A stretch of DNA of 64,000 bases from Pedobacter sp. GTDB lineage: Bacteria; Desulfobacterota; Desulfuromonadia; Desulfuromonadales; Syntrophotaleaceae. This document shows positions 5,609 to 50,764 of this stretch, piece after piece. How positions within the stretch are numbered: the first letter of the stretch is position 1; each line of letters begins with the position of its first letter. The notes beneath the pieces are model-generated. The model saw only the letters and a program-made list of their open reading frames with translations. It was not told the DNA's origin and did not search any database. Where the stretch lies: the NCBI GenBank assembly GCA_050253415.1, contig JBFWJC010000001.1:384001-448000 (forward strand), in the 5' to 3' direction. Position numbers and translations under genes: made by a program.

Positions 5609-7410
5609 CAGCCGTACCCGATACTCAAATGGATGCGAAAAGAAGGATTGTCTTCACCGATCTGACGGGCGACATCGAGTCGCACCGGCCCCACCGGCGT
5701 GTAGTAGCGTAAGCCCATGCCGGCCCCTTGGTCCAGCCTGATCTGGCCGGGCTCGTCAAACGCGTTGCCGGCGTCGTAAAATGCTGCCAAGCCCCATTTT
5801 TCGCCCAGGGCGCGTTCCAGTTCCAGGCTGCCGACCAACAGATACTTGCCGCCTATCACGTCGCCGTCGCTGTCTTCGGGCCCCAGCGATTGGTAGGCAT
5901 AGCCACGCACGCTGCGATCGCCGCCGGCAAAAAATCGCAGCGACGGCGGCACGTCTTCCAGGGGTTCGTTCTGCAAAGTCCAGCCTGTGTCCATGCGTGC
6001 CAGCAGAGAGAGTCGGCCGGGCAGGGCCAACAGCACGTTGCCGGAGGCCAACATTTGCAGCAGCCCGGTATCGGAGCCGAGATACTGGTGTCCGCCACGG
6101 ACCTCAAGATTGTAACCGTAACCGTTTTGAGGGCGGACCAGACTGCGATAATGGCGATGGGAAAAGCGCACCCCCGGCAGCACCATGCGCAGGGTATCTG
6201 TTTCTCCACCGACGGTGAAGTGTTCTTGAAAGGCTTGCAGATAGGTGGAAATTTTTCGGCCCTGGCCCAGATCCCAGGCGCGTTCGACCTCGCCGGTCAG
6301 CTTACTGGAGAGAACGGTGTCGACATCCTCCCGTTCGAAGGTCAGCCGGACCGCCGTGAAACTGTTGAGGCTCTGTGTGTCAGGCCAGATGTAGGCAGCT
6401 CCTGCCGTTTGGGCATTTTGCGCCAGGTTGGCTTTAAGTTGCAGTTCATGTCCGTGGTTGAAGATGTTCAGATCTTGGTAGAGCAGCGACATGCGTGCGC
6501 CGGTGTCGGTGCCGTAACCGATGCCGGGGCGCAAGCGCCGGGAAGGGGAAGGCTCGAGAACCACATCGACCGGCACGCGCTGGTCGCTCACCGCCTGGCG
6601 GTCCGGAAGCAGCCGGATTTCCTTGAAACGGTCGGCGTCAAGCAACTGCAGCTGGGTTTCCCCCAGGCTGGCGTAGGAAAAAATATCGCCAGGCTGAAAG
6701 GTCAAAAAGCGTCGCAGGTAGACATCGGGATAATCTTCCGCCCCTTTGAAGCGGGTTTCTCCAAAATAGTACCGAGGTCCGGTGGCCAGTTCCAGTTCGA
6801 CCTCGGCGGACAGATTGTCCAGGTCAATGCGTATTTCATGTACGGCAAAGTCGGCATCCAGGTACCCGAGATCCAGCGCCTGGCTCTGCAGGTCCTTTTT
6901 GGCGCTTTCGTAAGCGGCTTGATCGAGAGGCTCTCCGACCTGTAGCGGAAAAGCCGCCGCCAGTCGCGTCAATGACCCCCGCGCAGTGCCGGGGCCGGTG
7001 ATCTCGACCCTTGATTTGGTGACGCGCACCGGTTCGCCAGGGTCTATGCTGACTTGGAGCACACTCCTGTCGTCGATTTTCTCAAGCCGGGTTTGGATCT
7101 TCGGGGTAAAATATCCAAAGGGCTGCATGGCGCGTGCCGCCTGCTGCGGTACCTGGTTTGTGAAGCGCTCCAACCAGCGGTGGTCGACTTGCCCCTCCCT
7201 TACCAATCCGGGGGGAAAAGCCAGAGCCGCCTCAACGTTGACGCGTAGCGGTCCCTCCAAACCCTGTAAATCAAGGCTTAGCGGTTCCGCTGCGAGCCCC
7301 GCTCCCGGCTGAAAGAAACACAGGATTCCAAGCAACAGGCCGACAACGGCCGACGACCATGAGGATCCTCCGCGAGGCCATGCTTTTTTTACCCGGATGC
7401 CCGCTCTCAT
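5605..7410 (-). CDS. tamA: TamA (Omp85 family) outer membrane protein
   Basis: POTRA-like region, RFFAGGDRSVRGY motif, YTPVGPVRLDVA, terminal aromatic residue; start uncertain (7410 or 7428). Confidence 0.9.
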   Translation of the reverse strand: MRAGIRVKKAWPRGGSSWSSAVVGLLLGILCFFQPGAGLAAEPLSLDLQGLEGPLRVNVEAALAFPPGLVREGQVDHRWLERFTNQVPQQAARAMQPFGYFTPKIQTRLEKIDDRSVLQVSIDPGEPVRVTKSRVEITGPGTARGSLTRLAAAFPLQVGEPLDQAAYESAKKDLQSQALDLGYLDADFAVHEIRIDLDNLSAEVELELATGPRYYFGETRFKGAEDYPDVYLRRFLTFQPGDIFSYASLGETQLQLLDADRFKEIRLLPDRQAVSDQRVPVDVVLEPSPSRRLRPGIGYGTDTGARMSLLYQDLNIFNHGHELQLKANLAQNAQTAGAAYIWPDTQSLNSFTAVRLTFEREDVDTVLSSKLTGEVERAWDLGQGRKISTYLQAFQEHFTVGGETDTLRMVLPGVRFSHRHYRSLVRPQNGYGYNLEVRGGHQYLGSDTGLLQMLASGNVLLALPGRLSLLARMDTGWTLQNEPLEDVPPSLRFFAGGDRSVRGYAYQSLGPEDSDGDVIGGKYLLVGSLELERALGEKWGLAAFYDAGNAFDEPGQIRLDQGAGMGLRYYTPVGPVRLDVARQIGEDNPSFRIHLSIGYGW

Positions 7411-12480: not shown

Positions 12481-13821
12481 TTAGTCGCAATCCGCCACCA
12501 TTCCAACCTTGTTATCCAGATACACTTTTCGGCGTCGCCACAGATAAAACGGCAGGCCGGCCAAGGTAATCAGGATGCCGAGCAGCGAAAGCCCGGGATT
12601 GGTCCAGCCGATCTGCACCAGGATGCACAGATAGGCGGTCACGAAAACCAGCGGTACCAACGGGTAGCCCCAGGTGCGATAGGGGCGCGGGGCATGCGGT
12701 TGCCGCCGGCGCAAAACGAACAGCGCCACGCCGCTGGCTATGCTGGATAACACCATGACAAACACAACGTAGCTCAGCAGCTGGTCGAAGGTGCCGAGCA
12801 GTACCAGCAGGCAGGCCAGAACCGCTTGAATCAGCACGGCACAAGCCGGAGTTCGGTAAAGAGTGTGAACCTCCTTCAGGCAGGACCAGAAAACCCCATC
12901 CTCCCCCATGGCAAAAGAAACCCGCGCACCGGTCATGATGGTGGCGTTGATGCCGGCTGCAATCGCCAGCACGATGGGGATCGAAACAAGTCCAGCTATG
13001 CCAGATCCGTAAAGCCTGACCATGGCGGCCTGGGCGACGTTGACCACGTTATTCAGTTCGGCCATGGGCAGGGCGAGCAGGTAAACCAGGTTGATCAGAG
13101 TGTAGATCAGCGTCACACTCAGGGTTCCCAGGATCAGTGACAGGGGCAGGTTGCGCTGGGGATTTTGGATTTCGCTGCCCATGTAGGCCGAGGCGAACCA
13201 GCCGCTGTAGGTAAAGATGACCGCGATCATGGGGGTGGCGAACAGCCTGCCAGGGTCCGGTTGCACTGCACCGGCCGCAGACAGATGCCGCCAGTCGCCA
13301 CCTCCGGCCACAAAGCCGGCGACGATCAAAACCAGCAAGGTTAGAATGGTGCCGAGGGTGAAAACATTCTGGGTCGTGCCGCTCAGGCGGATGCCCCGGT
13401 AGTTGATCAAGGAAAACAGCAGGATAAACGCCATTGCCATGAACTGCTTGTCTGCCTCCCTCAGAAACGGCAGGAAAATTTTCAGATAACTGACCAACCC
13501 GATGGCCAGCGCGGCGATGGATCCGGGGTTGATCACCCAGAACAGTACCCAGCCGAGCAGAAAACCGGCCCAGGGGCCATAGGCGGCTTTCAGGTAATGA
13601 TAGTCGCCGCCGGCCTTGGGGTACATACCGGCCAGTTCGGCATAGGTCAGGGCCCCGCAGATGGTCAGCAGGCCGCCCAGCACCCATATGCCGAGGAACA
13701 TCCAGGGGTGGGGCAATTCCCTCGCCAGAAAACCGCTGGTGGTAAAGATCCCGGCCCCGATGACGTTACCGATGATCAACAGGTAGGCATCTCCCAGGTC
13801 GAGCCGACGATTCAGTTGCAC
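12481..13821 (-). CDS. APC family amino acid/polyamine permease
   Basis: IGAGIF TM1 motif, YAELAGMYPKAGGDY, FTYSGW, RPYRTWGYP; GTG start overlaps the end of the upstream gene. Confidence 0.9.
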   Translation of the reverse strand: MQLNRRLDLGDAYLLIIGNVIGAGIFTTSGFLARELPHPWMFLGIWVLGGLLTICGALTYAELAGMYPKAGGDYHYLKAAYGPWAGFLLGWVLFWVINPGSIAALAIGLVSYLKIFLPFLREADKQFMAMAFILLFSLINYRGIRLSGTTQNVFTLGTILTLLVLIVAGFVAGGGDWRHLSAAGAVQPDPGRLFATPMIAVIFTYSGWFASAYMGSEIQNPQRNLPLSLILGTLSVTLIYTLINLVYLLALPMAELNNVVNVAQAAMVRLYGSGIAGLVSIPIVLAIAAGINATIMTGARVSFAMGEDGVFWSCLKEVHTLYRTPACAVLIQAVLACLLVLLGTFDQLLSYVVFVMVLSSIASGVALFVLRRRQPHAPRPYRTWGYPLVPLVFVTAYLCILVQIGWTNPGLSLLGILITLAGLPFYLWRRRKVYLDNKVGMVADCD

Positions 13822-15482
13822 GCTGCGTTTCCTTCCGCCAGGCATGAGCCTATGTAGATCAGGCCGAGCATCTTTTCCTTTTGGTCCTGCGCGGCTTTGC
13901 GCATCTCGCCAAGGGTGATGGATATCTGGTGTTCGCGGCTACGGATGCCGGCGGCATAGACCAGCCGCACCGGCGTATTATCGGCAAAATGGGTCCGTAG
14001 CAACGATTCGAGTTCCGGCACATCCTGCAACCCCATGAAGATGGCCAGGGTGTCGCCGTTTTTCGCTACGGCCGCAAGGAGTTCGTCGTTGCGACGCAGA
14101 CCGCGCGGCGCGGTAATCACGGTGGAGCCGTTGGCGCTGATATCGCGGTTGATAACCGCATTGGCGGCATTAAGGGAGCTGAGCCCGGCCACGGTTTCGA
14201 TTTCGGCCTCATCCAAATATTCCCTGATCCAGCGGGAACTGCCGTAAATCATCGGGTCGCCCCAGTCGAGAAATGCCACGTTCTTCCCCGCATCCAGTGC
14301 CTTGCGGATCTTGCCTGCATTGGTGCGCCACTCCTCTTGCCGCAACCGGTCCCGTTCCGTCTCGGACAGGGGTGTTTTGCGGTCACGATCCGCAAACGCA
14401 AACGGATCGAACAGCACCTCCTTGCCGCTGAGGTAAGTGGCGAAGCGTTTTTGTATATCCCCCGGTACCGCAATGGCATCGGCCCGTGCCAACGCCGAAA
14501 GGGCTTCGAGGGTGATCTGGCAGGTGTCGCCGGCGCCGACGCCGATCACGGTCAGCTTCGGGACATGCCGGGGGCGCAGCACCTCGATGGATGCCACGTC
14601 GCGCACGAAACGGCTGGCAGACGAATCGGGCAGCACCAGCCATCGTGCATGCTTTTCTCCAAGGGGCTGGCCGCCCATGCGGTCAGCAAGCAGAATCCGC
14701 CGACCGAGGGGCGACCAGAACAATTCCCCGTAGGACAGCAGCGATCGATAGCCATCACGAGATCGGACCAAAAAGACGGTTTGGGGTTCCGCGCCCACCC
14801 CGGCCTGTTTCAAAATATCCACCAGCGGCGTACCGGAAAAACGCTTTACGCCGTCAAAACGGGTGCCGTTCCAGACGATCTTGGTAGTGACTTCAGAGAT
14901 CGATTGGTTGGGTCGTTTTGCCAGTGATACGGGCTGTATCGCGGCATCCCGTGTCGGATCGATCACCTCGATGCTGACGATATCGGTCAGGCAGCGGTCG
15001 CTGTAAAAGTCGTTGCCCAGCACCAGGCGTGGCAGGACGAGCGGTTTTGGTACTAGCGTGGGAGTCTCTTTGGTATATATCGGTGTTGCGGAAAAGGCGA
15101 TGATCACATCGGCCGGACGACCATACGCCACCTCCGCCCACGACAACAGGGTGCGTTGGCCTTGACGATTACGCACCACAAGGGCGAGGTCGATGGCCTT
15201 GGGGAAGGTTCCACCTTCTTTTTCCACTCCGGCAGCCTGCAAAAGATATTGCAGAGGTACGCCCTGGTAGCGATAGACACCATGAAAGGTATTCTGGGTG
15301 GCGACCTCGGTGGTGCGGACCTCCACCGTCCGGTAGTTGGCCAAGTCCTTCAGGGTCAGGCGCTGGGGGTGCTTGACCAGACCGGTGATCGTGACTACCG
15401 GTTCGGCTGCTGCCTGGCAGACAGTGAGTCCGCAGGTAAAAAATAGATACGAAATTACCAGCAATAACCGCAGGTATTTCAT
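13812..15482 (-). CDS. Exported protein: two sulfite-oxidase-like (Oxidored_molyb-type) repeats fused to a tetrapyrrole methylase domain; no CxxCH
   Basis: Sec-type signal peptide; ITGLVKHP..LTLKDL, YQGVPL and SRDGY repeats; C-terminal IGVGAGD..ITLEAL..ADAI and FLDWGDPMIYG. Confidence 0.75.
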   Translation of the reverse strand: MKYLRLLLVISYLFFTCGLTVCQAAAEPVVTITGLVKHPQRLTLKDLANYRTVEVRTTEVATQNTFHGVYRYQGVPLQYLLQAAGVEKEGGTFPKAIDLALVVRNRQGQRTLLSWAEVAYGRPADVIIAFSATPIYTKETPTLVPKPLVLPRLVLGNDFYSDRCLTDIVSIEVIDPTRDAAIQPVSLAKRPNQSISEVTTKIVWNGTRFDGVKRFSGTPLVDILKQAGVGAEPQTVFLVRSRDGYRSLLSYGELFWSPLGRRILLADRMGGQPLGEKHARWLVLPDSSASRFVRDVASIEVLRPRHVPKLTVIGVGAGDTCQITLEALSALARADAIAVPGDIQKRFATYLSGKEVLFDPFAFADRDRKTPLSETERDRLRQEEWRTNAGKIRKALDAGKNVAFLDWGDPMIYGSSRWIREYLDEAEIETVAGLSSLNAANAVINRDISANGSTVITAPRGLRRNDELLAAVAKNGDTLAIFMGLQDVPELESLLRTHFADNTPVRLVYAAGIRSREHQISITLGEMRKAAQDQKEKMLGLIYIGSCLAEGNAACN

Positions 15483-15509
15483 TGCAACCTCTCTTTCAAA
15501 TAATATAAA

Positions 15510-15553
15510 GGGCAGGTTCGCGACAGATCATCCCCGTTGTCGCGAACCTGCCC
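15510..15553 (-). terminator. Intra-operon 16-bp hairpin, terminator-like on the minus strand
   Basis: GGGCAGGTTCGCGACA / TGTCGCGAACCTGCCC, followed on the minus strand by TTTATATTATTT. Confidence 0.6.
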
Positions 15554-15609
15554 CTGCTTATCCACTGGCCGTGTTGCTTGCGCTCCGGATGAAGCGTGTT
15601 ATGCCCGGT

Positions 15610-17412
15610 TTAATGGCACTCGCCGAACCGCACATTCAGGCGCGGCCCCATGTAGATCAGGCCGAGGAATTTTTCCGGTTCGGCTGCCAGGTGGGCCGCC
15701 GCTTGTTGCAGGGTGGTGCGTACCAGGCGTTCACTGCCTGCGACGCCGGCACTGTAGACCAGGTTGACCGGAGTCTCGGCGGAATAATGGCTGTCAAACA
15801 AGGGTTGCATGTCCTGGAATTCCTTCAATCCCATAAAGATGGCCAGGGTATCGCCGCTTTTTGCCAGGGCGGCAAGCAACTGCGGATTTTGTTTCAGACC
15901 GCTCGGCACGGTGATGACCACCGATCCTCCGGCTCCGACGTCGCGCTGGATCATGGCATTGGCCACGTTGAAGGCACTCAGGGCGGGGATGGTTTCGAGC
16001 TGGTCGTCGCTGAAGAAGGCCCGGATCCAGCGGGTGCTGCCGTAGATCATCGGATCGCCCCAGTCCAGAAATGCGACGTTTTTCCCCTCCTTCAGCGCCT
16101 GGCGGATTTTGGCCACCCCCGCCTCGCGTTGCAGGCTGCAGCGTTTATCCGCCTCGGCCGGTGTTAGCTCCGGGTGGGATTTGCGATACATGTGCTGGAT
16201 GAGCACCAAGGGGTCGAACAGCACCGGTTTGTCGCCCAGGTAGGGGGCATAGCGCTTGGCGATATCCGCCGGGGCTACCAGCACGTCAGCGCGCGCCAGG
16301 GCGCCGATAGCCTCCAGGGTGATCAGATCGGTATCACCCGGCCCCACGCCGATGATGGAAATTTTTGCCGCCGGTTTCAGGTCGACGACCTCGATACGCG
16401 CGACGGCCAACACATCCCGATCATCGACCAGTTCCTCGGGTACGATAATGCGGTATTTCCCGCCGCGCTGACCTTCCAGAGTTTTGCCATTGTCACTTTC
16501 GGCGATCATGATGCGCCGGCCCTTAAAGGACTGGAACAGTTCGCCGAAGGAAAACAATGCCCGGTATCCGTCCGGGGCGGAGATCATCACGGCTTTGGTC
16601 AGTTGCTCACCGGCGCCGGCCGCCTCAAGAATCTTGGCCAGAGAAATGCCTTTGTAGCGGTGCAGGCCGTGGTATCCCATATGCACGCCGACGACCTTCT
16701 TCATCATTTCCATACGAGGGTAGTCTTTGAGGTCGGACAGTTTCAGTTCTTTGGCCACCGCACCGGTCACCCGGATTTCCCCGGATTCAAGCTTGGCCGC
16801 ACGATCGACCTTGAGTTTGGGATACAGATCGATGACCTCGATGCGGGTAACGTTTTCCAGGCAACGGTCGGTGTAAAAGTCGCCGCTGAGCAGCAATTTG
16901 GGCATGCCTGCCGGGCGGTCGTATTCGATAAGGGACTTCCGGTAGATTTCCGGGCCGTGGCATTTTAGGCAGCGATCCTCGGTCATCATCGGCTTGACCG
17001 GGGTGGCGGCAAAGGCGATGGTCACTTCGGTGGCATTGCTATAGTAGACTTCGCCCCAGGACAGCACCACCTGCTTGCCGGAAGCATCGGTCACCCGGAT
17101 GGCCAGATCGATCGGTTTTTCAAACGGCTGGTCCTGTTTGACGATTTCAGCCATGTCCAGCAGGGTGCGCAGCGGTACGGCTTTGTGCAGATATACGCCA
17201 TGAAACTTGCCGTCTCGGCTGACCTCGTTGAGCTGAATCTCTACCGACTGAAAGCGGGCCAGATCGTCGGTGGATAATTTGAGGGGGCGTTTGACCTCAC
17301 CGGTGATGCTCATGACCCCTTGTGAAGCCGTCTGCTGATCGGCCGCCAGGCTTTGATGAAAGGCCGGCAAAACAGCCAGTAACGTAAGCAGGGTAACGGC
17401 CATGCGTTTCAT
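15610..17412 (-). CDS. Exported monoheme c protein: sulfite-oxidase-like repeats, CxxCH motif and tetrapyrrole methylase domain
   Basis: Signal peptide MKRMAVTLLTLLAVLPAFHQSLAA; CLKCH; IGVGPGDTDLITLEA and FLDWGDPMIYG; ATG at 17412 overlaps the upstream stop. Confidence 0.78.
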   Translation of the reverse strand: MKRMAVTLLTLLAVLPAFHQSLAADQQTASQGVMSITGEVKRPLKLSTDDLARFQSVEIQLNEVSRDGKFHGVYLHKAVPLRTLLDMAEIVKQDQPFEKPIDLAIRVTDASGKQVVLSWGEVYYSNATEVTIAFAATPVKPMMTEDRCLKCHGPEIYRKSLIEYDRPAGMPKLLLSGDFYTDRCLENVTRIEVIDLYPKLKVDRAAKLESGEIRVTGAVAKELKLSDLKDYPRMEMMKKVVGVHMGYHGLHRYKGISLAKILEAAGAGEQLTKAVMISAPDGYRALFSFGELFQSFKGRRIMIAESDNGKTLEGQRGGKYRIIVPEELVDDRDVLAVARIEVVDLKPAAKISIIGVGPGDTDLITLEAIGALARADVLVAPADIAKRYAPYLGDKPVLFDPLVLIQHMYRKSHPELTPAEADKRCSLQREAGVAKIRQALKEGKNVAFLDWGDPMIYGSTRWIRAFFSDDQLETIPALSAFNVANAMIQRDVGAGGSVVITVPSGLKQNPQLLAALAKSGDTLAIFMGLKEFQDMQPLFDSHYSAETPVNLVYSAGVAGSERLVRTTLQQAAAHLAAEPEKFLGLIYMGPRLNVRFGECH

Positions 17413-18176
17413 GATTTTTGTCCTCCGTTGCGAATCTTGCGAATTTGCGGAAAGTACCAGAGCATCAGCAGGCACAGGATCGTATTGCCGATCAGTATCA
17501 GCAACAGACCGGGATCCTTTTTAACGGTGATTTGAAGGGCCGGCAATACGTCAACGCCGGGTTTGCCGGCCATCCCCAGATGCAGGGTGTAGCCCTGCCA
17601 GTAAATTGGTTCGAGAATGGCGATCTGGCGTTGCACGACGTCGGTCCCGTGTTTCAGCTCCAGGGTGGCCGTGCATTGCTTCATGGTTCCCAAAAGAAGG
17701 GGTTCCCGCCAGTATTCGTAGTGGCGTTCGAGCAAGGTAACCTGAAGATCGTTCACGGTGACTTGTTCTCCGACCACGGCCGGCAGGCGTTGCTTGCTGC
17801 CAGTGAATTCGGTAAGGGCATGACCGCCGATAATAAACAAAAAGCAGAAGTGCATGATGGACGGAGCCAGCAGCAGTGCCAAGATGGCGCGGCGATGCTG
17901 ACCTCGGTGTTGCCAGAGCCAGGTCAGGCGTTGCAGGGTACAGGCGGCGGTATTCACGCCCAGCAGGAAAAGCAGGCCGAACAGCGAAAAGATCCACCAG
18001 TTCTGTATTCCGTTGTGGTGCATGATCCAGGAGGGAAAGAGTTGAGCGTTGAGTTTGCCGAATACCGGCATGTACCGGGTGTAAAAGCTACCGATAAATA
18101 GATTGACAGTCAGCAGGCACAGCAACCATAACGTCAGACGAATACTGGCCATGGACGTCCAGAGTCGTTTAATCAT
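17409..18176 (-). CDS. Short ResB/CcsB-like cytochrome c biogenesis protein
   Basis: ASIRLTLWLL, WW..LLGVNTAACT, H-xxFLFIIGG and KKDPG motifs; adjacent to the ccsA-like gene. Confidence 0.7.
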   Translation of the reverse strand: MIKRLWTSMASIRLTLWLLCLLTVNLFIGSFYTRYMPVFGKLNAQLFPSWIMHHNGIQNWWIFSLFGLLFLLGVNTAACTLQRLTWLWQHRGQHRRAILALLLAPSIMHFCFLFIIGGHALTEFTGSKQRLPAVVGEQVTVNDLQVTLLERHYEYWREPLLLGTMKQCTATLELKHGTDVVQRQIAILEPIYWQGYTLHLGMAGKPGVDVLPALQITVKKDPGLLLILIGNTILCLLMLWYFPQIRKIRNGGQKS

Positions 18177-19023
18177 TGCCGACCTCCGTCAGTTTGGAGT
18201 TGCGACAGGCATTCGGTACCGCCCCATGCACCTGCTGGGCTGCGGTAGCCTGAGTGTTGTTGCCGGAGGACTTGGCCGGATTAAGCACGGTAAGATGCGC
18301 CGCCACCTGCAGGGCGTAAGCCACAACCAGCACCACCAGTGCCCCGGACACCGCCCAGCGAGCTTTTTTGCGCAGGTCGAAGGCGCGGTCAAAGTGGGTA
18401 TGCAGGTAGCCGCAGTACAAACACCAGATGGCGGCGGATTGCAGATGCCGTTCTCCCCAGTGAAACGCCGCGCCCCAACCGAGATAACTCCAGACCGCAC
18501 CGATAACCTGGGCCAGGCTGTAAAAGATGAAGCCCCAGATCACCAGTTGGTTGAACAACGGATCGCCGTCGCGACGACGCAGATGGCGCCAGGCGAGCCA
18601 GCCACCGGCCAGGAAACAGGCGATGGCCAGCACTTCAAGGAAGAAAAACAAAGGGGAAGACCAGTTGGCGGTAAACGGTCCGGGTGGCGGAATCTGCACC
18701 GGCAGCGCCAGAGTGGTTAACATCGTCAGCGTCACCAGCCAGCTCAGAGAGGCCGCCTGTTGCCGCTGGCCGCGCCACAGGCATAATAGCGCCAACATAG
18801 CCAGGCACCAAGGCAGAAACAGCGCACCGTTAAAGACTCCGTCGAGGGAGAAAATCCCCCAGCGCCAGCAACGGCCGAGCTGGCTGGTGGTGTGCAGCAT
18901 AAATCCGAGCCCCAGCAGCCAGCATGAAAAACGAAACTTTTTCAGCAGATAAAAGATAAGGCTGCCGGCGTAAACGCCGGCAGCCACATTGAATAACATC
19001 GCGGAGGTAGTCGCTAAAGTCAT
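18169..19023 (-). CDS. CcsA/ResC-like cytochrome c biogenesis protein (divergent WWD domain)
   Basis: Multi-pass membrane protein with GAVWSYLGWGAAFHWGER and YLH; GAGG upstream of ATG 19023. Confidence 0.75.
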   Translation of the reverse strand: MTLATTSAMLFNVAAGVYAGSLIFYLLKKFRFSCWLLGLGFMLHTTSQLGRCWRWGIFSLDGVFNGALFLPWCLAMLALLCLWRGQRQQAASLSWLVTLTMLTTLALPVQIPPPGPFTANWSSPLFFFLEVLAIACFLAGGWLAWRHLRRRDGDPLFNQLVIWGFIFYSLAQVIGAVWSYLGWGAAFHWGERHLQSAAIWCLYCGYLHTHFDRAFDLRKKARWAVSGALVVLVVAYALQVAAHLTVLNPAKSSGNNTQATAAQQVHGAVPNACRNSKLTEVGND

Positions 19024-19065
19024 GCACAATCCCTCGTTGTGGAAGGTTCTGTTTTCATAACAGGA

Positions 19066-21069
19066 TCAGTAGGTGAAGTTGAGGCCGGCCAGGAAGTTGC
19101 GGCCGGGAGCCGGTTGACCGACCTCGTAATAATCACGATCGGTGATATTGTTGACTTCTACAAAAGCAGTCCCTTCCACCCCCAAGAGCTTGCCGAGTTT
19201 CTGCTCGGCCCGGGCATTGAGCAGCAGGAAGTCCGGGGACTGCGTCCACTCTTCAATAAGAGCAGTCGGAGTGTAAGTATTCTTATTAGCGTACTGCCGG
19301 TTTACATAGGAGAGTTGGGTACTGAGGTTGAGCCCGAAGGGGAATCGGTAGCGCAGGTCCAGATTGGCGCGATGGCGCGGCCTCCCTTCCAGCTCGCGGT
19401 CATTTTCCTTGTCTTCGGTGCGCATGTAGGTGTAATTCAGCCCGGCCCAGAACGCCTCGGTGATGTCGGCGCCCAAGGAAACCTCTATCCCTTTGGTGAC
19501 GGCCTCGCCGATATTGATATAAACCGTTTCGCCATCAATTTTATCCTTATCGATGAGGTCTTCGATGTCATTGTAAAAGGCCGCTACCGAAAGAGTTATA
19601 TCCTCGCCGAAGGCTTGGGTCAGGCCGACCTCATAAGTGATGGTTGTCTGGGGGTCGAGATCGGGGTTGCCGCCAATTAATTCGCTGTACAGCTCCTTGA
19701 GATGGGGGAAACGGGTTTTTTTGCCGATGGAGCCGTGGAGGGTAGTGCTCTCCGACAGAGTGATAACCACACCACCCTGGGGATTGATGGCATCGATAGC
19801 TTTCGTCAGCTCCCGACCGGTGGCTTCACGCGGATCGTAATAGTCGTAGCTTACCCCTACCACGAACGCGAGCCAGTCGAGAGGTCGCACCTCGTCTTCG
19901 ATCCCGATGGAGTAGGTATTCGCCGCAAAGGTCTCCCAGGGCGACCAATCGTTTTCATCTAGCGGTTCTTCTTTGTCCCGTTGTTTGGTTTCGTCTCGCA
20001 CAAACGAGCCACCGATCTTGAGGTAACTCCAGCGACCAAAGTCCATGAAAGCCTGCAGTTCACCGCCGGTGCTGTAATTTTCATAAGGGGATAATACATA
20101 AGGTTTCTTTAGACTTTTTGGATATTCACCAAATCGCCCATACATTTCGTCATCGTGGCTGACATAAAATGCGCGGGCTTTGAGCCGCAGCCAGTCGGTC
20201 ACCTGCTGCTCGCCAACCAGGCTCAATTGCCACTGCTCCCATTCGTTAAAACGCCACAGGGGCCGATTCGGCACCCCCTTCTCATTGTTGTAATAGTTGA
20301 AGGTCAGATAGAGTTTAGTCTCCTCGCTGGGCTCATAACCGAGTTTAAAATTGACATGGTGCTGCAGGTAATCGCTTCGATCCCGTTTGCCGCCATCTTC
20401 CGGTGCTTCCAGTTGGTCAGCCCACCAATCCTCATCATAATCGCTGGACAGCCGCCAGCCATTGGAATGGCGGTAGCTGTACCCGGCGTATACAGTGAAG
20501 TCGCCGATCGGAGCTCCGGCACTAACGGAATAGTGCTGGGTGCCGTAGTCACCCCAGGCAGTGCTGGCCGTGGCCATTGGTTTAGACGCGGTCTTGGTGA
20601 TGATATTGATGACCCCGCCCATGGCATTGGGCCCGTACAACACGGATGAGGCGCCTTTGGTGACGGTGATCTTGGCAACATTGTCGATGGGGAATTGGGC
20701 CAAGTCGATAAGACGTGAATATTGCTCGTAAACCGCCACACCATCGATCATTATCTTGACATCTTCACTATTAAAACCACGAATGCTGACGTAGCTTTCG
20801 CCCTTTTTGGAACCTCTCTGCACGAAAACGCCCGGCAATTGTTGCAACGCGTCGGCCACGGTCTGGGCGCCGCGCTGTTTAAAATCCTCCTCGGTTACTT
20901 CCGTAACAGTGGTGGCCAGATTGGCCACCTGTTTTTCCCCGCTGACGATAACCTCGCCCAGGGTAAATACGTCATCAGTGGCTACCTCCTCTGCCGCCAG
21001 CGCCGGCCAAGCTGCCAGTAAACAACCGGCCAGCACCCACGCCGACCACCAAATACGTGTTTTTGTCAT
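19066..21069 (-). CDS. TonB-dependent outer membrane receptor
   Basis: Signal peptide, TonB-box-like FTLGEVIVSG, plug motifs (SIRG, KGASSVLYGPNAMGGVINIIT), C-terminal PGRNFLAGLNFTY; AGGAGG RBS. Confidence 0.92.
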   Translation of the reverse strand: MTKTRIWWSAWVLAGCLLAAWPALAAEEVATDDVFTLGEVIVSGEKQVANLATTVTEVTEEDFKQRGAQTVADALQQLPGVFVQRGSKKGESYVSIRGFNSEDVKIMIDGVAVYEQYSRLIDLAQFPIDNVAKITVTKGASSVLYGPNAMGGVINIITKTASKPMATASTAWGDYGTQHYSVSAGAPIGDFTVYAGYSYRHSNGWRLSSDYDEDWWADQLEAPEDGGKRDRSDYLQHHVNFKLGYEPSEETKLYLTFNYYNNEKGVPNRPLWRFNEWEQWQLSLVGEQQVTDWLRLKARAFYVSHDDEMYGRFGEYPKSLKKPYVLSPYENYSTGGELQAFMDFGRWSYLKIGGSFVRDETKQRDKEEPLDENDWSPWETFAANTYSIGIEDEVRPLDWLAFVVGVSYDYYDPREATGRELTKAIDAINPQGGVVITLSESTTLHGSIGKKTRFPHLKELYSELIGGNPDLDPQTTITYEVGLTQAFGEDITLSVAAFYNDIEDLIDKDKIDGETVYINIGEAVTKGIEVSLGADITEAFWAGLNYTYMRTEDKENDRELEGRPRHRANLDLRYRFPFGLNLSTQLSYVNRQYANKNTYTPTALIEEWTQSPDFLLLNARAEQKLGKLLGVEGTAFVEVNNITDRDYYEVGQPAPGRNFLAGLNFTY

Positions 21070-21268
21070 AACTCCTCCTTGCAATAAAAATGGAATTTCC
21101 CTGACAGGCATGGGTTGCCTGCGGGAAACTCAGGGTTAGTCACACCTCTTACAGAAAACTTTTGGTAAAACATTCATCAAAATCCGAAAGCGACCAGGCG
21201 GGTTAAATCCGCCCGTCTCCAGCAATAAAATTAAAATTCTTTATCTAATTAAGTGTGATGTCTGAATT

Positions 21269-21292
21269 GGATATATTGCTGGGTACATAACG
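21269..21292 (-). promoter_or_regulatory. Putative ModE-type operator upstream of the TonB operon
   Basis: Minus strand CGTTATGT-N8-ATATATCC, preceded by CCTTG; closely matches the site at 47927. Confidence 0.55.
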
Positions 21293-21699
21293 CAAGGCGT
21301 CTCAAATTGCGGATGTGCCGCATTGCCATAGATTCATGGGGGAGAATCGAAGTATTTATGAAGTTGGGTGGATATGGAAGGCAGGAAAGAGCCGCAAGAC
21401 TTGCGACCGCCTCTAGGAGGAAAGACGGTGCAAGACTCTCGCAAAATTTTTCCCAGCTTTCGCTGTATAGCAAACGGAATAACGCCATGCAAGTAAAAAA
21501 GCATTTTAAGTTTAATTATTTAATGTATACCTTGACGAATTCCCAATTCGGCATTCCCATGGCGGGACGGACAGGGGGCTCCGGATCATGCAAGGGTCCT
21601 ATGCCCACCGATAGATCATAAAACGCCAGGATGTTGCAGCATCCTGTGTGTTGCCTGCTACAATCGTAGAAAATGCAGCGCGAGACGAAAGGATGTCCC

Positions 21700-22056
21700 A
21701 TGACCCAAAAAGGTTACCTGTGGATGACGACATTGTTGGTGGTGACGGTGCTGCTTGCCGCCTGTGCGGGCAGGATGGCGGCGCGGTCGCTTCTGGATGA
21801 GGACTATGCCGTCATGAGCGATGAAGAATTATTGGTGTATTACGACCAGGTAAGTGAAGCGATCGCAAAGGAAGAAGGCGGAGGGGGTGGTTTCGGTCTG
21901 GGGTTGGGGCTCGGGGTTGGCAGCGGTTCGTTTTCGGTGGGTGCCAGCCAGGGGATGTATGTGGATGATCCGACCGAGCAGTTGCGAGTCCGACGCAATC
22001 AGGTGCGTCTTGAGTTGGCCAGACGAGGTCTGCAACCCCAAGGCACGCCGCAGTAA
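21700..22056 (+). CDS. Small lipoprotein with Gly-rich segment
   Basis: Lipobox LAAC after a hydrophobic signal; GGGGGFGLGLGLGVGSG segment. Confidence 0.75.
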   Translation: MTQKGYLWMTTLLVVTVLLAACAGRMAARSLLDEDYAVMSDEELLVYYDQVSEAIAKEEGGGGGFGLGLGLGVGSGSFSVGASQGMYVDDPTEQLRVRRNQVRLELARRGLQPQGTPQ

Positions 22057-24163: not shown

Positions 24164-25984
24164 TCAGTCTTGCCGGACCTGGGAAAGAAGTTCCATGTCC
24201 AGCCCGTTATATTCGAAATACTCGCGTTCGAGCTCTTCCACGTAAAAACGGTCCAGTCCGCTGTTTTTGAGGAAGTCGTCGCGTAACGCATCATCTCGAC
24301 CGGCAATAATGCGCGGCAGTAGATTGTGCAGATACAACTCCTCCATCTGGACATGATGCACCACGCGGCGGAAAAGCTTGTGCAGCAATTCTTCATCGAT
24401 GGTTCCGTTAAGACCTGTTTCGCGTACCACTTCTGCCTGCAGTTGTTCCCGTTCCTGGGCAGTGCTGTACCGGGAATAAAAATTGCGAATCCGTTCCTTG
24501 GTGTGGCTCAGCAAGGTGTTGAACAGTTCTTCCTGCTTGCAGATGTCGTTGAGGAGCCGTTGCATCCCTTGCAGGGTCAGTCTGCCTTCCTCTATGGCCG
24601 CCAGTCCCTTACGCAGGGCCAGCAGCTTACGGCGGCCGAATTGCCCAAGATAGTGGTTTTCCAGAATTCCGCTGAAGAAGAGTTCATCGAACAATTCGCC
24701 GCCCAGCACGTCGAATTCTTTTTTGTTATTCAGCAGGCTGCGCACCAGCTCTTCGGTAAATCGTATCTTGTCCATGAAGGCAAGCTGGTTAATATGCTCC
24801 GAGGTACTGTCGAATCGGTCGAAGTAGGTGATGATCCACGAGAAATTTTCTACCAGAAAGACATCGGCGCCATCGCGCATCTTTTCGTCGCAGGCCTTGG
24901 CCGCCTCAAGTAACATCTGTTCAAAAGCGTAGTCGCGGCCTTCCACTGCACGTCGCTTGGCTTTAAGTAATTGTACCAGGTCTTCGCGGTCGATGCGGGC
25001 ATCGATCTGCCGCTCATGTAAAAATATCCCCTCGAGAATCTGGCGCGTTTCCGACAGGTAATCCTGTTCGTCGGCGCTGGTCAACAATTCCGGCTTGAGT
25101 ACTTCGTCCATGGCATAAAACAAAGCCGAAGGGATTTTGCTGCGCACCGACAGGGTCTTGAGGCGGGTTAAACGGGCATTTTCAGCTGTCCCGATACGTC
25201 CTTTGAGCTTGCACTCGACCAGGATGTTTTTGTACTCGTCAACGATGCGTCGATTGGCCGCATGCTTGTACATAACGTCGATGCGGATGCGTTCTTGCTG
25301 GTAACTGTCAATGCCGAGGGTATCAGCCAGTTTTACAAGCTTGGTAAATTCCGGGTCGGGGATGTTCTGGTAGGCGTGATAAAGTTCCCGAAAAGCATCG
25401 TGATAACGTCTGTGCTTGGTGTTGATAAGCTTGATCAGATACAGGGCGCTGCGATGCCCGAGAAGCGGAAGTAGTTCTTCGATCAACTGGGCATCGTCCC
25501 CTTCGCCGATGAAGGGAAAGCGTTTCAGATCCTTGCCCGCCAGGCGCAGAATCTCTGCCTGCTGTTCCTGCAAAAGACCCGATACCGAGCCGAAGATGAA
25601 AAAGTAGTAGTTGTGAACGGCATTGCCTTCCAGAAAAACACGGTCGTATTCCTCGTAGCCGTCGGTGCGGCTGGAAAACATCAGTGCGCCGTCCTCGCGG
25701 CTGCTGGTGCCGAACATGACCAGTCGGTTACGCACTTCTTCCTTTATAAGATCGGCTAGCGGTTGCTCCACACCGAACATGTATTCGCAGAATGAGCCAC
25801 CGTTGCCGCGATGCGTCAGGCCTTCAGCATCGAGAATCAGCTCGTTCCCGGGGGAGAAAATACGCAGGGATTGTCCGGATGCTTCGTAGAAATAACTGCG
25901 ATAGGCCTCGGGCGAGGCAATGGTGACATAGTATTCGATACTGTCGTTGATCTGGCCGTGGAGGCGTACTTCCTGATGTTTCAT
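24164..25984 (-). CDS. Conserved deltaproteobacterial protein of unknown function (resembles the TIGR04442 family; from memory)
   Basis: 606-aa soluble ORF with HRGNGGSFCEYMFG and QQERIRIDVMYKH; overlaps the upstream gene. Confidence 0.65.
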   Translation of the reverse strand: MKHQEVRLHGQINDSIEYYVTIASPEAYRSYFYEASGQSLRIFSPGNELILDAEGLTHRGNGGSFCEYMFGVEQPLADLIKEEVRNRLVMFGTSSREDGALMFSSRTDGYEEYDRVFLEGNAVHNYYFFIFGSVSGLLQEQQAEILRLAGKDLKRFPFIGEGDDAQLIEELLPLLGHRSALYLIKLINTKHRRYHDAFRELYHAYQNIPDPEFTKLVKLADTLGIDSYQQERIRIDVMYKHAANRRIVDEYKNILVECKLKGRIGTAENARLTRLKTLSVRSKIPSALFYAMDEVLKPELLTSADEQDYLSETRQILEGIFLHERQIDARIDREDLVQLLKAKRRAVEGRDYAFEQMLLEAAKACDEKMRDGADVFLVENFSWIITYFDRFDSTSEHINQLAFMDKIRFTEELVRSLLNNKKEFDVLGGELFDELFFSGILENHYLGQFGRRKLLALRKGLAAIEEGRLTLQGMQRLLNDICKQEELFNTLLSHTKERIRNFYSRYSTAQEREQLQAEVVRETGLNGTIDEELLHKLFRRVVHHVQMEELYLHNLLPRIIAGRDDALRDDFLKNSGLDRFYVEELEREYFEYNGLDMELLSQVRQD

Positions 25985-33420: not shown

Positions 33421-35802
33421 ATGAGCGAGACAATTCCAAAAAATATCATCCTTACCACTTTGGATGATGCCATCAACTGGGGGCGAAAGAATAGCATGTG
33501 GCCGATGTTTTTCGGTCTGTCGTGCTGTTTTGTCGAGATGATGGGCAGCATGACGCCGCGTTTCGATCTGGCGCGTTTTGGTGCCGAGGTCCTGCGCGGT
33601 ACGCCGCGCGAGGCGGACCTGATGGTTATCGCAGGCACTCCATTTAAAAAAATGGCGGCCAGCATGCTGCGTGTTTACGAGGAGATGGCTAATCCCAAGT
33701 GGGTTATCGCCATGGGCAGCTGCGCCAACTCCGGTGGCATGTACGACGTTTACAGTGTCATGCAGGGGGTCAATCAGATCCTGCCGGTGGATGTCTATAT
33801 CCCCGGTTGTCCGCCGCGCCCGGAGGCCTTTATCCAGGGGTTGATGGTGCTGCAGGACAAAGTTGCCCGCAACGAGCGGCCGGCCAGATCGGTACTCAAC
33901 ATGCAGGGCGGCTGCGAAGGCACGACCGTGCCGATTCTCATCGATGGTCATAGCAAGTCCCGTGATACGCGCGGCCCGGGATACGGGCACTGCCCTATTC
34001 GCGGCACATCCCAGCAGCCCCCGGATTTCCAGGGTAGTCGCGCCGCCGGCCTCTGGACCCCGCCGCAGCCACAAATCGTCTTCCCCGATGGGACCGTACC
34101 TCTGTTGGAACAGGTCAGGCAACGTTTCGGCGAAACCGTCAAACAGGAGCAGACCGCCGATATGCCGACCCTGGTGGCCGAACCTGATCAGGTTCCGGAA
34201 CTGCTGCGGTTTCTCAAGCAGGACATCGATCAACCGTACCAGCGTCTCGAGGACTTGACTGCCGTGGATGAAACCGCGCGTAGCAGCCGTCCTTCCCACG
34301 ACCTGACTCTGGTCTACCACCTGCTGTCTTTTGAGCGTTCCGGCTATCTGCGTGTCAAGGCTCCTTTAGCCACCGCCCAGACTGAGGCGCCGTCGATCAC
34401 CGACTTGTGGCCTGCAGCCAACTGGTATGAGCGCGAGGCTTTCGACATGTTCGGTGTGCGTTTTGCCGGACACCCCAATCTGCGCCGTATTCTGATGCCG
34501 GAAGGCTGGCAGGGACACCCGCTACTCAAGTCCCACCCCGGTCGGGCTACCGACATGCCGCCTTTCACCCGGGACACCGCCACCACCATGGTGCCGCCAG
34601 AGGGCTCTCATTTTTTCAGCCGCCAGGAGAATTCCGACAACACGCTGTCTATCCTCAACCTCGGCCCCCAGCATCCAGGTACCCATGGGATTCTTCGGGT
34701 TATCCTGAAACTGGCTGGCGAGGAGATCGTCGATCTCGATTCGGAAATCGGCTACCATCACCGTGGGGCGGAAAAGATCGCCGAGCGTCAGCACTGGAAT
34801 CAGTATATCCCCTATACCGACCGCATCGACTATCTGGCCGGATCCCTGAATAATCTGGCTTATCTGCATACAGTTGAAACCCTCTGTGGTGTCGATGTGC
34901 CGCCGCGGGCCCGCTACATCCGCATTCTGCTTAGTGAACTGTTCCGTATCGCCAGTCACCTGGTATGGCTGGGTACCTTCGCCCATGACGTTGGTGCCAT
35001 GACGCCGGTATTCTATGCTTTCGACAGTCGCGAAAAGATCTTCGATATCATTGAAATGGTTACCGGCGGACGGATGCATCCCGCCTGGTTCCGTATCGGT
35101 GGCGTTCCGGAAGATCTGCCCGAAGGCTGGCGCGCAGCAGTGGATGCTTTTACCAAGGATTTCGAGGCGCGCATCGATGAGTTTGACCGTTTGTTGACCG
35201 ATGGCCCTATTTTTCGCGCCCGTACGGAAGGAATCGGTGTCGTCAGCCGGCAGCAGGCCATTGAACTCGGCTTTAGCGGACCTAACCTTCGCGCCACCGG
35301 GCTTGCCTGGGATTTGCGCAAAACCATGCCCTACGCCGGGTATGAGGAGTTTGATTTCGACGCCGTTACTGCCGAGGGAGGGGACTGTTTTGCCCGTTAC
35401 CTGGTACGTCTCGGGGAATTGCGCCAGAGCCTGCGCATCGTACGCCAGGCAGCGGAGCGCATGCCGGAAGGCCGCTGGGGCAGTAGCGACTATCGCTACG
35501 CGTTCCCCAAAAGACAGGACGGCCTGCAGGATATCGAAAGCTTGATCCACCATTTTCTGCATGTCAGCCGGGGGCCGACGGCGCCCCGCGGTGAATGCTA
35601 CCGGGCCACCGAATCGAGCAAAGGCGAATGCGGTTACTATGCCGTCAGCGACGGTGGGACCGGCGCCTATCGCCTGCGGATTCGAACACCGAGTTTCCCT
35701 CATCTGCAGGCCTTGCCCCAACTGAGTCGTGGCCGGCTGGTGGCCGACGTCATTACTATTCTCGGCTCGCTCGATTACGTGCTGGCCGATCTGGACCGCT
35801 GA
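33421..35802 (+). CDS. nuoBCD: Fused NADH-quinone oxidoreductase subunits B/C/D
   Basis: NuoB ([15 protein letters not shown]), NuoC ([15 protein letters not shown]) and NuoD ([21 protein letters not shown]) in one ORF. Confidence 0.93.
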
Positions 35803-48391: not shown

Positions 48392-48394
48392 GTT

Positions 48395-48482
48395 GCGCTA
48401 ATTTCGACCTCTGCCTGATCAACAGACCTAACGAAACCCGCACCCAATACCAAAATCAATGGTATTGGTGCGGGTTTTTTTT
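48395..48482 (+). ncRNA. Conserved attenuator-like cis RNA element, copy 1
   Basis: GCGCTaATTTCGaCCTCTGC..CAGACcTAaCGAAACCCGCA-[stem]-TGCGGGTTTTTTTT; repeated at 50681. Confidence 0.6.
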
Positions 48483-50650: not shown

Positions 50651-50680
50651 CTTCCCTCTACATAAAAAATAAATAGTCAC

Positions 50681-50764
50681 GCGCTTATTTCGTCCTCTGC
50701 TTAGTCAGACTTAGCGAAACCCGCATCGATTCCTGAAATTCAGGATATCAATGCGGGTTTTTTT
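50681..50764 (+). ncRNA. Conserved attenuator-like cis RNA element, copy 2
   Basis: GCGCTtATTTCGtCCTCTGC..CAGACtTAgCGAAACCCGCA-[stem]-TGCGGGTTTTTTT, ending about 18 nt before the next ATG. Confidence 0.62.

Follow-up and report, generated by a model that had tools for sequence, protein, structure and literature searches.

What task could unite a TonB-dependent receptor, two membrane proteins related to heme handling, two exported methyltransferase fusions and an amino-acid permease in a single operon? This question is posed by a stretch of 64,000 nucleotides (nt) from Pedobacter sp. (Desulfobacterota, Syntrophotaleaceae; assembly GCA_050253415.1, contig JBFWJC010000001.1, positions 384,001 to 448,000), referred to here as the window, in which positions 12481-21069 of the minus strand are occupied by six genes in head-to-tail order. 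Based on their gene content, export signals and protein folds, on the conserved layout and on the genes and regulatory elements related to tungsten that surround the operon in relatives, we consider it probable that this operon is an envelope system for the acquisition of tungsten, possibly also of molybdenum, with processing in the periplasm. An import-and-process pipeline had already been proposed in a preliminary description made from the letters of the window, and it is still the most economical reading. The genes and domains of the operon are as follows:

19066-21069, minus strand: TonB-dependent receptor, 667 residues, with matches to PF07715 and PF00593
18169-19023, minus strand: CcsA-like heme-handling membrane protein, 284 residues, PF01578 at 33.9 bits
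17409-18176, minus strand: ResB-like small four-helix membrane protein, 255 residues, labelled from position and weak similarity
15610-17412, minus strand: FusA, exported fusion protein, 600 residues, Oxidored_molyb plus TP_methylase
17344-17412, minus strand: FusA signal peptide
16813-17322, minus strand: FusA domain 1, like sulfite oxidase (SUOX)
16375-16779, minus strand: FusA SUOX-like domain 2
15613-16365, minus strand: FusA class III methyltransferase domain
16957-16971, minus strand: CLKCH motif for heme c attachment, FusA residues 148-152, in a helical insert of domain 1
13812-15482, minus strand: FusB, exported paralogue of FusA without CxxCH, 556 residues, Oxidored_molyb plus TP_methylase
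about 14583-15404, minus strand: FusB SUOX-like region
about 13902-14558, minus strand: FusB methyltransferase domain
12481-13845, minus strand: LAT-family APC permease, 454 residues, AA_permease_2 at 196 bits

The genes were initially described as co-directional, several with overlapping start and stop codons, and this is confirmed: calculated from the coordinates, the overlap amounts to 8 nt between the CcsA-like and ResB-like genes, 4 nt (ATGA) between the ResB-like gene and FusA and 34 nt between FusB and the permease, with the permease translationally coupled to FusB. Receptor and CcsA-like genes are separated by 42 nt, FusA and FusB by 127 nt, and no terminator-like site was found in the latter gap. 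The probable start of the receptor is the ATG at 21069, which is preceded by AAGGAGG.

The module and its tungsten-related context in relatives

A search of one-genome-per-species contigs with a FusA profile yielded 79 loci, 77 of which were kept, including those on truncated contigs; L078 and L079 were dropped because the match covers only part of the methylase domain. The 36 loci flanked on each side by 5 kb or more form the full-context set, in which a receptor gene is present in 33 cases, the permease in 22, the ResB-like gene in 21 and the CcsA-like gene in 18, with neither receptor nor permease in three; across all 77 loci the corresponding counts are 50, 42, 37 and 30. Genes for ExbB, ExbD and TonB come next in 9-10 loci of the full-context set. 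The loci belong to Desulfobacterota, Nitrospirota and Spirochaetota, and since the arrangement recurs in relatives of three phyla it is not due to chance: the neighbourhood comparison bears out the initial view that these genes form one module. Gene order differs among the lineages and the association persists, the permease or the receptor being placed on either side or divergently in L042, L043, L046 and L061. At closer taxonomic range, 11 of 121 sampled genomes of the host's order (own genome counted) and 8 of 12 genomes of its family (own genome excluded) contain the fusion.

Genes encoding TupA-like, TupB-like, WtpA or WtpB-like proteins, or regulators of the HTH_17 plus PBP_like type, which we take to be TunR-like, are present in 22 of the 77 loci and in 17 of the full-context set. 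The four WtpA members all score above both curated cut-offs, whilst the TupA-like proteins, which match TupA alone, comprise ten that score 226-265 bits and a further pair with 123 and 192 bits; six of them contain TTTS, presumably a TupA signature. The relatives that link the window to tungsten by homology are 72-76% identical to it in FusA and 58-60% in the receptor. Two statements of the preliminary description can be judged from this. Its list of candidate substrates (metal chelate, pterin or tetrapyrrole) stands in part: molybdenum or tungsten, and specifically tungsten, is backed by the context, whereas the other listed substrates are not. Its statement that an ABC transporter is absent applies to the window, but not to many of the related loci.

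A further link to tungsten is given by the double SUOX-like domain itself. A profile of this double domain, compared with 1.84 billion representatives, matched many stand-alone two-domain proteins and also P0262, in which it is joined to a WtpA domain (288 bits vs 242.75); the same fusion recurs in ten or more Bacteroidales clusters. Among the metagenome loci, L092 carries the two parts as a fusion and L094-L096 have them side by side; an AFOR-family (tungsten-type aldehyde:ferredoxin oxidoreductase) gene is found 2-4 kb away in L092, L095 and L096, and a ThiF-like gene is also near in L092 and L096. The host genome encodes two WtpA genes (contig 3) and six AFOR genes: the host uses tungsten.

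The regulatory context was analysed through an Rfam scan covering the window and 17 loci. In L002, L003 and L005 a molybdenum/tungsten cofactor (Moco/Tuco) riboswitch, RF01055, is placed downstream of a conserved promoter and ahead of the receptor gene, with scores of 63-72 bits against a cut-off of 36, and is followed by a terminator; it is likewise upstream of the receptor gene in genome G030 (G099 is the same contig as L002 and was not counted separately). A covariance model built from 21 riboswitches and run over the 77 loci, the window and seven metagenome loci revealed three more, in the Spirochaetota loci L025, L061 and L073, which Rfam confirmed at 60-69 bits; in L025 and L061 the riboswitch is directly upstream of the cluster's receptor gene. 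When all loci were searched with a motif regular expression, only the riboswitches of the three close relatives were found. In total RF01055 was identified in seven genomes from two phyla, and the P3 stem is lacking in all seven: this P3-less class is tied to tungsten cofactor metabolism by Regulski et al. 2008 (PMC2408646). In the host's own genome (G000), all four RF01055 copies (C1 727300, 1063628 and 1369619; C3 12346) precede AFOR genes, four of the six in total, at a distance of about 700 nt from the AFOR_C match. No cobalamin riboswitch was detected in the window or the 17 scanned loci.

Other RNA elements were also noted. A c-di-GMP-I riboswitch (47.8 bits) is present in L056 at 7210-7290, with the receptor gene of the cluster about 370 nt downstream. 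On the plus strand of the window, Moco-II RNA motifs were found at 48394-48441 and 50680-50724 (43.1 and 45.9 bits, cut-off 35) in a stretch of low GC content (0.41-0.44), one upstream of a gene with a Nitro_FeMo-Co domain and the other upstream of genes for MoCF_biosynth and a molybdoenzyme of xanthine-dehydrogenase type.

The fusion proteins, their membrane partners and the operon leader

Each fusion protein comprises two truncated domains of SUOX fold and a class III S-adenosylmethionine (SAM) methyltransferase domain, with FusB being 44% identical to FusA. Both begin with Sec-type signal peptides (MKRMAV... in FusA, MKYLRL... in FusB), and the initial claim that the fusions are exported can be extended to the family: 63 of the 67 full-length homologous open reading frames were assessable, and all 63 exhibit an N-terminal hydrophobic signal. 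A twin-arginine signal is absent from the fusions of the window, and 57 of the 63 relatives are Sec-like without RR, a loose RR being present in the other six. Within the CLKCH motif of FusA, C148, C151 and H152 are nearly invariant among 76 homologues, and the heme motif CxxCH is present in 59 of the 67 full-length reading frames.

The FusA model computed with the 76 homologues has a mean predicted local distance difference test (pLDDT) score of 85.9, whilst a model of the first 346 residues reaches 91.9. Foldseek comparison of the modelled N-terminal part indicates a SUOX fold, with SorA matched at 7.6e-8 and chicken sulfite oxidase and YedY matched as well; two copies of the domain are present, each trimmed to the size of PruR, and whole PruR structures align to them with template modelling (TM) scores of 0.69-0.75 (normalised to PruR) at 15-18% identity. 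A single-sequence search of the PDB with the N-terminal part gave no match and a profile search was needed, which returned a weak match to 7rkb (E 0.47); comparison with the Protein Atlas gave unnamed or Oxidored_molyb clusters only. The cysteine that ligates molybdenum is lacking: C104 of SorA aligns to V64 of FusA, and FusA domain 2 contains no cysteine. Hallmarks of PruR are also absent, with valine in place of the tryptophan of its PW motif and no gene found for a DcpA-type partner. Given that both the ligand cysteine and a twin-arginine signal are missing, the fusions are not ordinary Moco enzymes, and since their signals are of the Sec type they cannot carry a Moco that is inserted in the cytoplasm.

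The methyltransferase domains of the two fusions match PF00590 with 133.9 and 139 bits. By fold, the C-terminal domain of FusA is nearest to the precorrin-4 methylases CbiF/CobM (CbiF: 1.3e-12), and the SAM motifs GxGPGD and GDPxxYG, which align to 1cbf/2cbf, are kept and nearly invariant in the family. Fold and SAM-binding motifs are thus shared with the class III SAM methyltransferases (CbiF/CobM, CbiL, CobA), but the domains described here are exported by Sec, fused to SUOX-like domains and score far under every equivalog cut-off for the named cobalamin and siroheme methylases, the best values being 80.6 vs 259.65 for FusA and 79 vs 163.25 for FusB.

Related domains were encountered in other arrangements. 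Protein P0236 of the representative library has 1556 residues and ten stretches that match the SUOX-like domain profile. Exported TP_methylase-like proteins that stand alone and whose glycine loop is changed to GMGTxPDL are encoded in L033 (8946-9899), L039 (11696-12607), L066 (7892-8791), L070 (16935-17861) and L072 (16881-17804); in L033, L070 and L072 these genes are placed between a TonB gene and TupA-like genes. Five loci from Spirochaetota encode an additional lipoprotein-like protein of about 353-385 residues (L023 7274-8335, L030 2735-3796, L057 7204-8340, L061 3411-4568 and L066 5099-6160), which contains two SUOX-like domains without methylase or CxxCH and is placed between the receptor and the CcsA-like gene.

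In case of the receptor, matches above cut-off to both plug (PF07715, 100.4 bits) and barrel (PF00593, 148.8 bits) identify a TonB-dependent receptor, which also exhibits a signal peptide and a TonB-box-like sequence, GEVIVSG. It reaches no NCBIfam equivalog cut-off and scores below the subfamily cut-offs for TonB-hemin (183 vs 317), TonB-B12 (173 vs 600) and siderophore receptors (177.5 vs 223.5 bits); the FRAP motif is absent.

The CcsA-like protein passes the cut-off of PF01578 (33.9 bits vs 29.9) and falls below that of TIGR03144 (41.7 vs 187.6); a PF01578 match is found in 19 of 23 family members, and across 23 relatives no variation is seen in a W..GWG....W motif and one histidine. The ResB-like label was given because the gene sits beside the CcsA-like gene: the window protein matches no Pfam or NCBIfam family, PF05140 included, 5 of 27 relatives match PF05140 weakly (best E 3e-5), and H109, H119 and C79 are invariant in the family. 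Synthases encoded beside their target cytochrome are represented by NrfI and CcsA1 of Wolinella, and the present pair resembles such dedicated system II cytochrome c synthases in that a CcsA-family protein and a partner membrane protein are encoded beside a gene with a heme c site. It differs in that both proteins have only about half the usual length, the site is an ordinary CxxCH and the pair is kept in two loci, L010 and L033, whose fusion has no CxxCH. The pair may therefore do more than attach heme, and the idea that it is dedicated solely to the heme site of FusA, as first put forward, is not supported.

The permease matches PF13520 with 196 bits, and its best sequence matches among solved structures are LAT-type exchangers, namely BasC (E 7e-55), the human exchangers LAT1/2 and xCT (range 7e-55 to 1e-39); by sequence it is thus closest to obligate amino-acid exchangers. 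It differs from these in missing the subfamily cut-off (TIGR00911, 207 vs 701.8 bits) and in that its gene is coupled to that of an exported methylase. The preliminary description had let the product of the pathway enter the cell through this permease, which is not supported: an obligate amino-acid exchanger is the nearest relative, and the TupABC-like or WtpABC transporters found in relatives are the obvious route for the metal. A complex prediction for the permease with mature FusB (score 0.00, mark 0.32) was uninformative for or against a contact.

The leader of the operon contains the following features:

21464-21492, minus strand: sigma-70-type promoter in a conserved block, with TTGCAT at 21487-21492, a 17-nt spacer and TATACA at 21464-21469
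21070-21463, minus strand: operon 5' leader of about 390 nt, matching no Rfam family
21396-21440, minus strand: leader hairpin with a CCUCC-containing loop (RNAalifold, 5 sequences)

The promoter block is kept in the window and five related loci, and three other genomes likewise have it upstream of the receptor gene. It is common to two clades, with different elements downstream: the CCUCC-loop hairpin in the clade of the window, the Tuco-type riboswitch and terminator in the sister clade. Among the 24 pairs of the hairpin, 5 are maintained through changes on both sides, and a comparison of the window leader with Rfam up to E 10 gave matches at chance level only.

Outside the operon, 21673-22056 on the plus strand encodes a small protein that has a lipoprotein-like signal and contains a stretch rich in glycine; it matches no family, and its gene is conserved divergently upstream of the operon in five close relatives. 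A TIGR04442-family protein (1004.5 bits) is encoded at 24164-25984 on the minus strand, upstream of EF-G, and occupies the same place in L001 and L009. The 793-residue reading frame at 33421-35802 on the plus strand is a NuoB-C-D fusion with the 20-kDa, 30-kDa and 49-kDa subunit domains of complex I.

A proposed route for tungsten and competing explanations

In the explanation that we favour, the TonB-dependent receptor would carry a scarce tungsten species over the outer membrane, and in the periplasm it would be bound and processed by the exported fusions. Their paired SUOX-fold domains without cysteine could serve as the module that handles the tungsten species, and the c-type heme of FusA, for whose attachment the neighbouring CcsA/ResB-like pair is the probable agent, may supply or remove electrons. 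The methyltransferase domain could modify a ligand or a sulfur atom and so release tungstate to an ABC importer of Tup or Wtp type, which is encoded next door in many relatives and on another contig in this genome. The LAT-type exchanger may serve this periplasmic chemistry, either by moving an amino-acid-like ligand or by passing SAM out in exchange for S-adenosylhomocysteine (SAH), which is a guess suggested by the fact that SAM and SAH are amino acids. Substrate, chemical steps and permease role are all inferred here, and we propose the specific chemistry with much lower confidence than the general assignment. The most explicit version of this chemistry, to be regarded as tentative and rather doubtful, is one of S-methylation: the receptor would import sulfur-ligated tungsten, either as thiotungstate of sulfidic waters or as tungstopterin or molybdopterin that other cells have released, the SUOX-like domains would hold it whilst the heme shuttles electrons, and the methyltransferase would S-methylate the sulfur ligands to release tungstate for Tup or Wtp, with the permease acting as SAM/SAH antiporter.

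Several observations weigh against an assignment to tungsten uptake. Neither the Rfam nor the covariance-model scan detected RF01055 in the window's own operon, and no Tup, Wtp or regulator gene is present within the 64-kb window; the link to tungsten therefore rests on homology to the relatives. Among these, the riboswitch is found in only 6 of the 77 loci, plus G030, and 19 of the 36 full-context loci contain no molybdenum or tungsten gene (one of them, L002, has the riboswitch); seven loci instead hold ABC transporter parts of siderophore/heme/B12 type (Peripla_BP_2, FecCD). All TupA-like proteins remain under the NCBI equivalog cut-off of 400 bits. Since RF01055 also precedes cofactor-using enzymes in this genome, control by the riboswitch alone cannot separate uptake from use, and the direction of this control (off or on) is not readable from folding of the riboswitch leaders, where aptamer and terminator occur together in the minimum-energy fold and no clear exclusive anti-terminator was found. 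We also know of no evidence that SAM is available in the periplasm.

These points leave room for other explanations, the strongest of which, though still unlikely in our view, is a tetrapyrrole pathway: a tetrapyrrole such as heme or a corrinoid would be imported by the receptor or else exported by the CcsA/ResB-like pair, and the exported methylase domains would bind or methylate it in the periplasm. Such a pathway would fit the class III tetrapyrrole-methylase fold of the C-terminal domain with its proximity to CbiF/CobM, the heme and B12 receptors as best, albeit sub-threshold, similarities of the receptor, the heme-handling nature of CcsA-type proteins, the retention of the pair in L010 and L033 beside a fusion without CxxCH and the BtuF/FecCD-type ABC parts in seven loci; novel porphyrins were also the idea of the authors of PMC3543383. 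However, the cobalamin riboswitch is missing from the window and the 17 Rfam-scanned loci, the receptor has no FRAP motif, no tetrapyrrole-methylase equivalog cut-off is reached, and the context that recurs is related to tungsten rather than to tetrapyrroles. The double SUOX-like domain, moreover, is found fused to WtpA without any methylase. We give still less credit to the fusions being periplasmic redox enzymes with a molybdenum or tungsten pterin cofactor, comparable to a sulfite dehydrogenase with its cytochrome c, and controlled by the riboswitch as users of the cofactor. The SUOX fold, with SorA and sulfite oxidase as top matches, the c-type heme site beside it and the position of RF01055 before cofactor-using AOR genes in the same genome would agree with this, but the molybdenum-ligand cysteine is replaced, the domains are truncated to PruR size, and with Sec-like rather than twin-arginine signals in 57 of 63 relatives a cofactor loaded in the cytoplasm could not accompany the protein; receptor, permease and WtpA fusion would also be left unexplained.

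A pterin system, in which PruR-like domains bind an excreted or imported pterin that is methylated or sensed in the periplasm, appears equally improbable. It draws on the alignment of whole PruR structures to the domains, on the weak profile match to 7rkb and on PruR being a secreted, cysteine-less pterin binder of SUOX fold (PMC11194511). Against it stand the low sequence identity to PruR, the valine found where PruR has tryptophan at the cysteine position and the lack of a DcpA-type partner gene; if the pterin were molybdopterin or tungstopterin, this explanation would overlap with tungsten acquisition. Finally, the genes could be neighbours by descent only, with no joint function. The variable gene order between lineages would be in keeping with this, yet the association outlives rearrangement (L042, L043, L046, L061) and spans three phyla, and start and stop codons overlap in the window; we regard mere descent as the least credible of the explanations considered.

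Relation to known systems and significance

The module is most likely an undescribed tungsten-acquisition system with unprecedented periplasmic parts. In relatives, it shares with tungstate uptake by TupABC and WtpABC, which is controlled by Moco/Tuco riboswitches or tungstate-responsive regulators, both the riboswitch class and transporter genes next to or inside the cluster, and in Bacteroidales the double domain is fused to WtpA; the known systems, however, are inner-membrane ABC importers only, and no outer-membrane receptor, periplasmic SUOX-like protein, methylase or APC exchanger is described for them in the searchable literature. TonB-dependent operons for trace metals and cofactors, such as those of BtuB, the heme receptors and, as a further cofactor receptor, PqqU, likewise have a receptor of plug and barrel, and in relatives of the window ExbB, ExbD and TonB genes belong to the same operon. 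Here, by comparison, no equivalog cut-off is reached, a partner other than a classical binding protein is present in the periplasm, and the inner-membrane partner in the window is a secondary exchanger instead of an ABC importer. PruR, the periplasmic pterin-binding protein of Agrobacterium (PMC11194511), resembles the domains in that it is secreted, has a SUOX fold of reduced size and lacks the cysteine that binds molybdenum; by comparison, the domain is here duplicated, usually equipped with a heme c site and fused to a methyltransferase, with neither PW motif nor DcpA partner.

Searches of PMC and bioRxiv returned no functional study of the system, in agreement with the earlier statement that no characterised pathway has this layout. 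This statement has to be qualified in one respect: a homologous cluster was noticed in 2012 in the Pelobacter carbinolicus genome paper (PMC3543383), the only publication found to mention it, which reports three such methyltransferases beside ligand-gated channels and offers novel porphyrins as a guess. The closest named homologue is annotated as 'molybdopterin-binding tetrapyrrole methyltransferase, one heme-binding site, putative'.

Tungsten enzymes, namely aldehyde oxidoreductases, formate dehydrogenases, class II benzoyl-CoA reductase and acetylene hydratase, drive a large part of the turnover of carbon under anaerobic conditions. The module would bear on the route by which tungsten passes through the outer membrane and on the chemical form in which it is taken from sulfidic habitats, and its presence in at least three phyla, together with the related WtpA-fused double domain in Bacteroidales, provides concrete candidate genes for tungsten uptake. 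Whatever the substrate, the pairing of an exported SAM-type methyltransferase with an amino-acid exchanger would be new envelope biochemistry; and should the S-methylation variant be true, this would be the first SAM-dependent methylation pathway operating in the periplasm.

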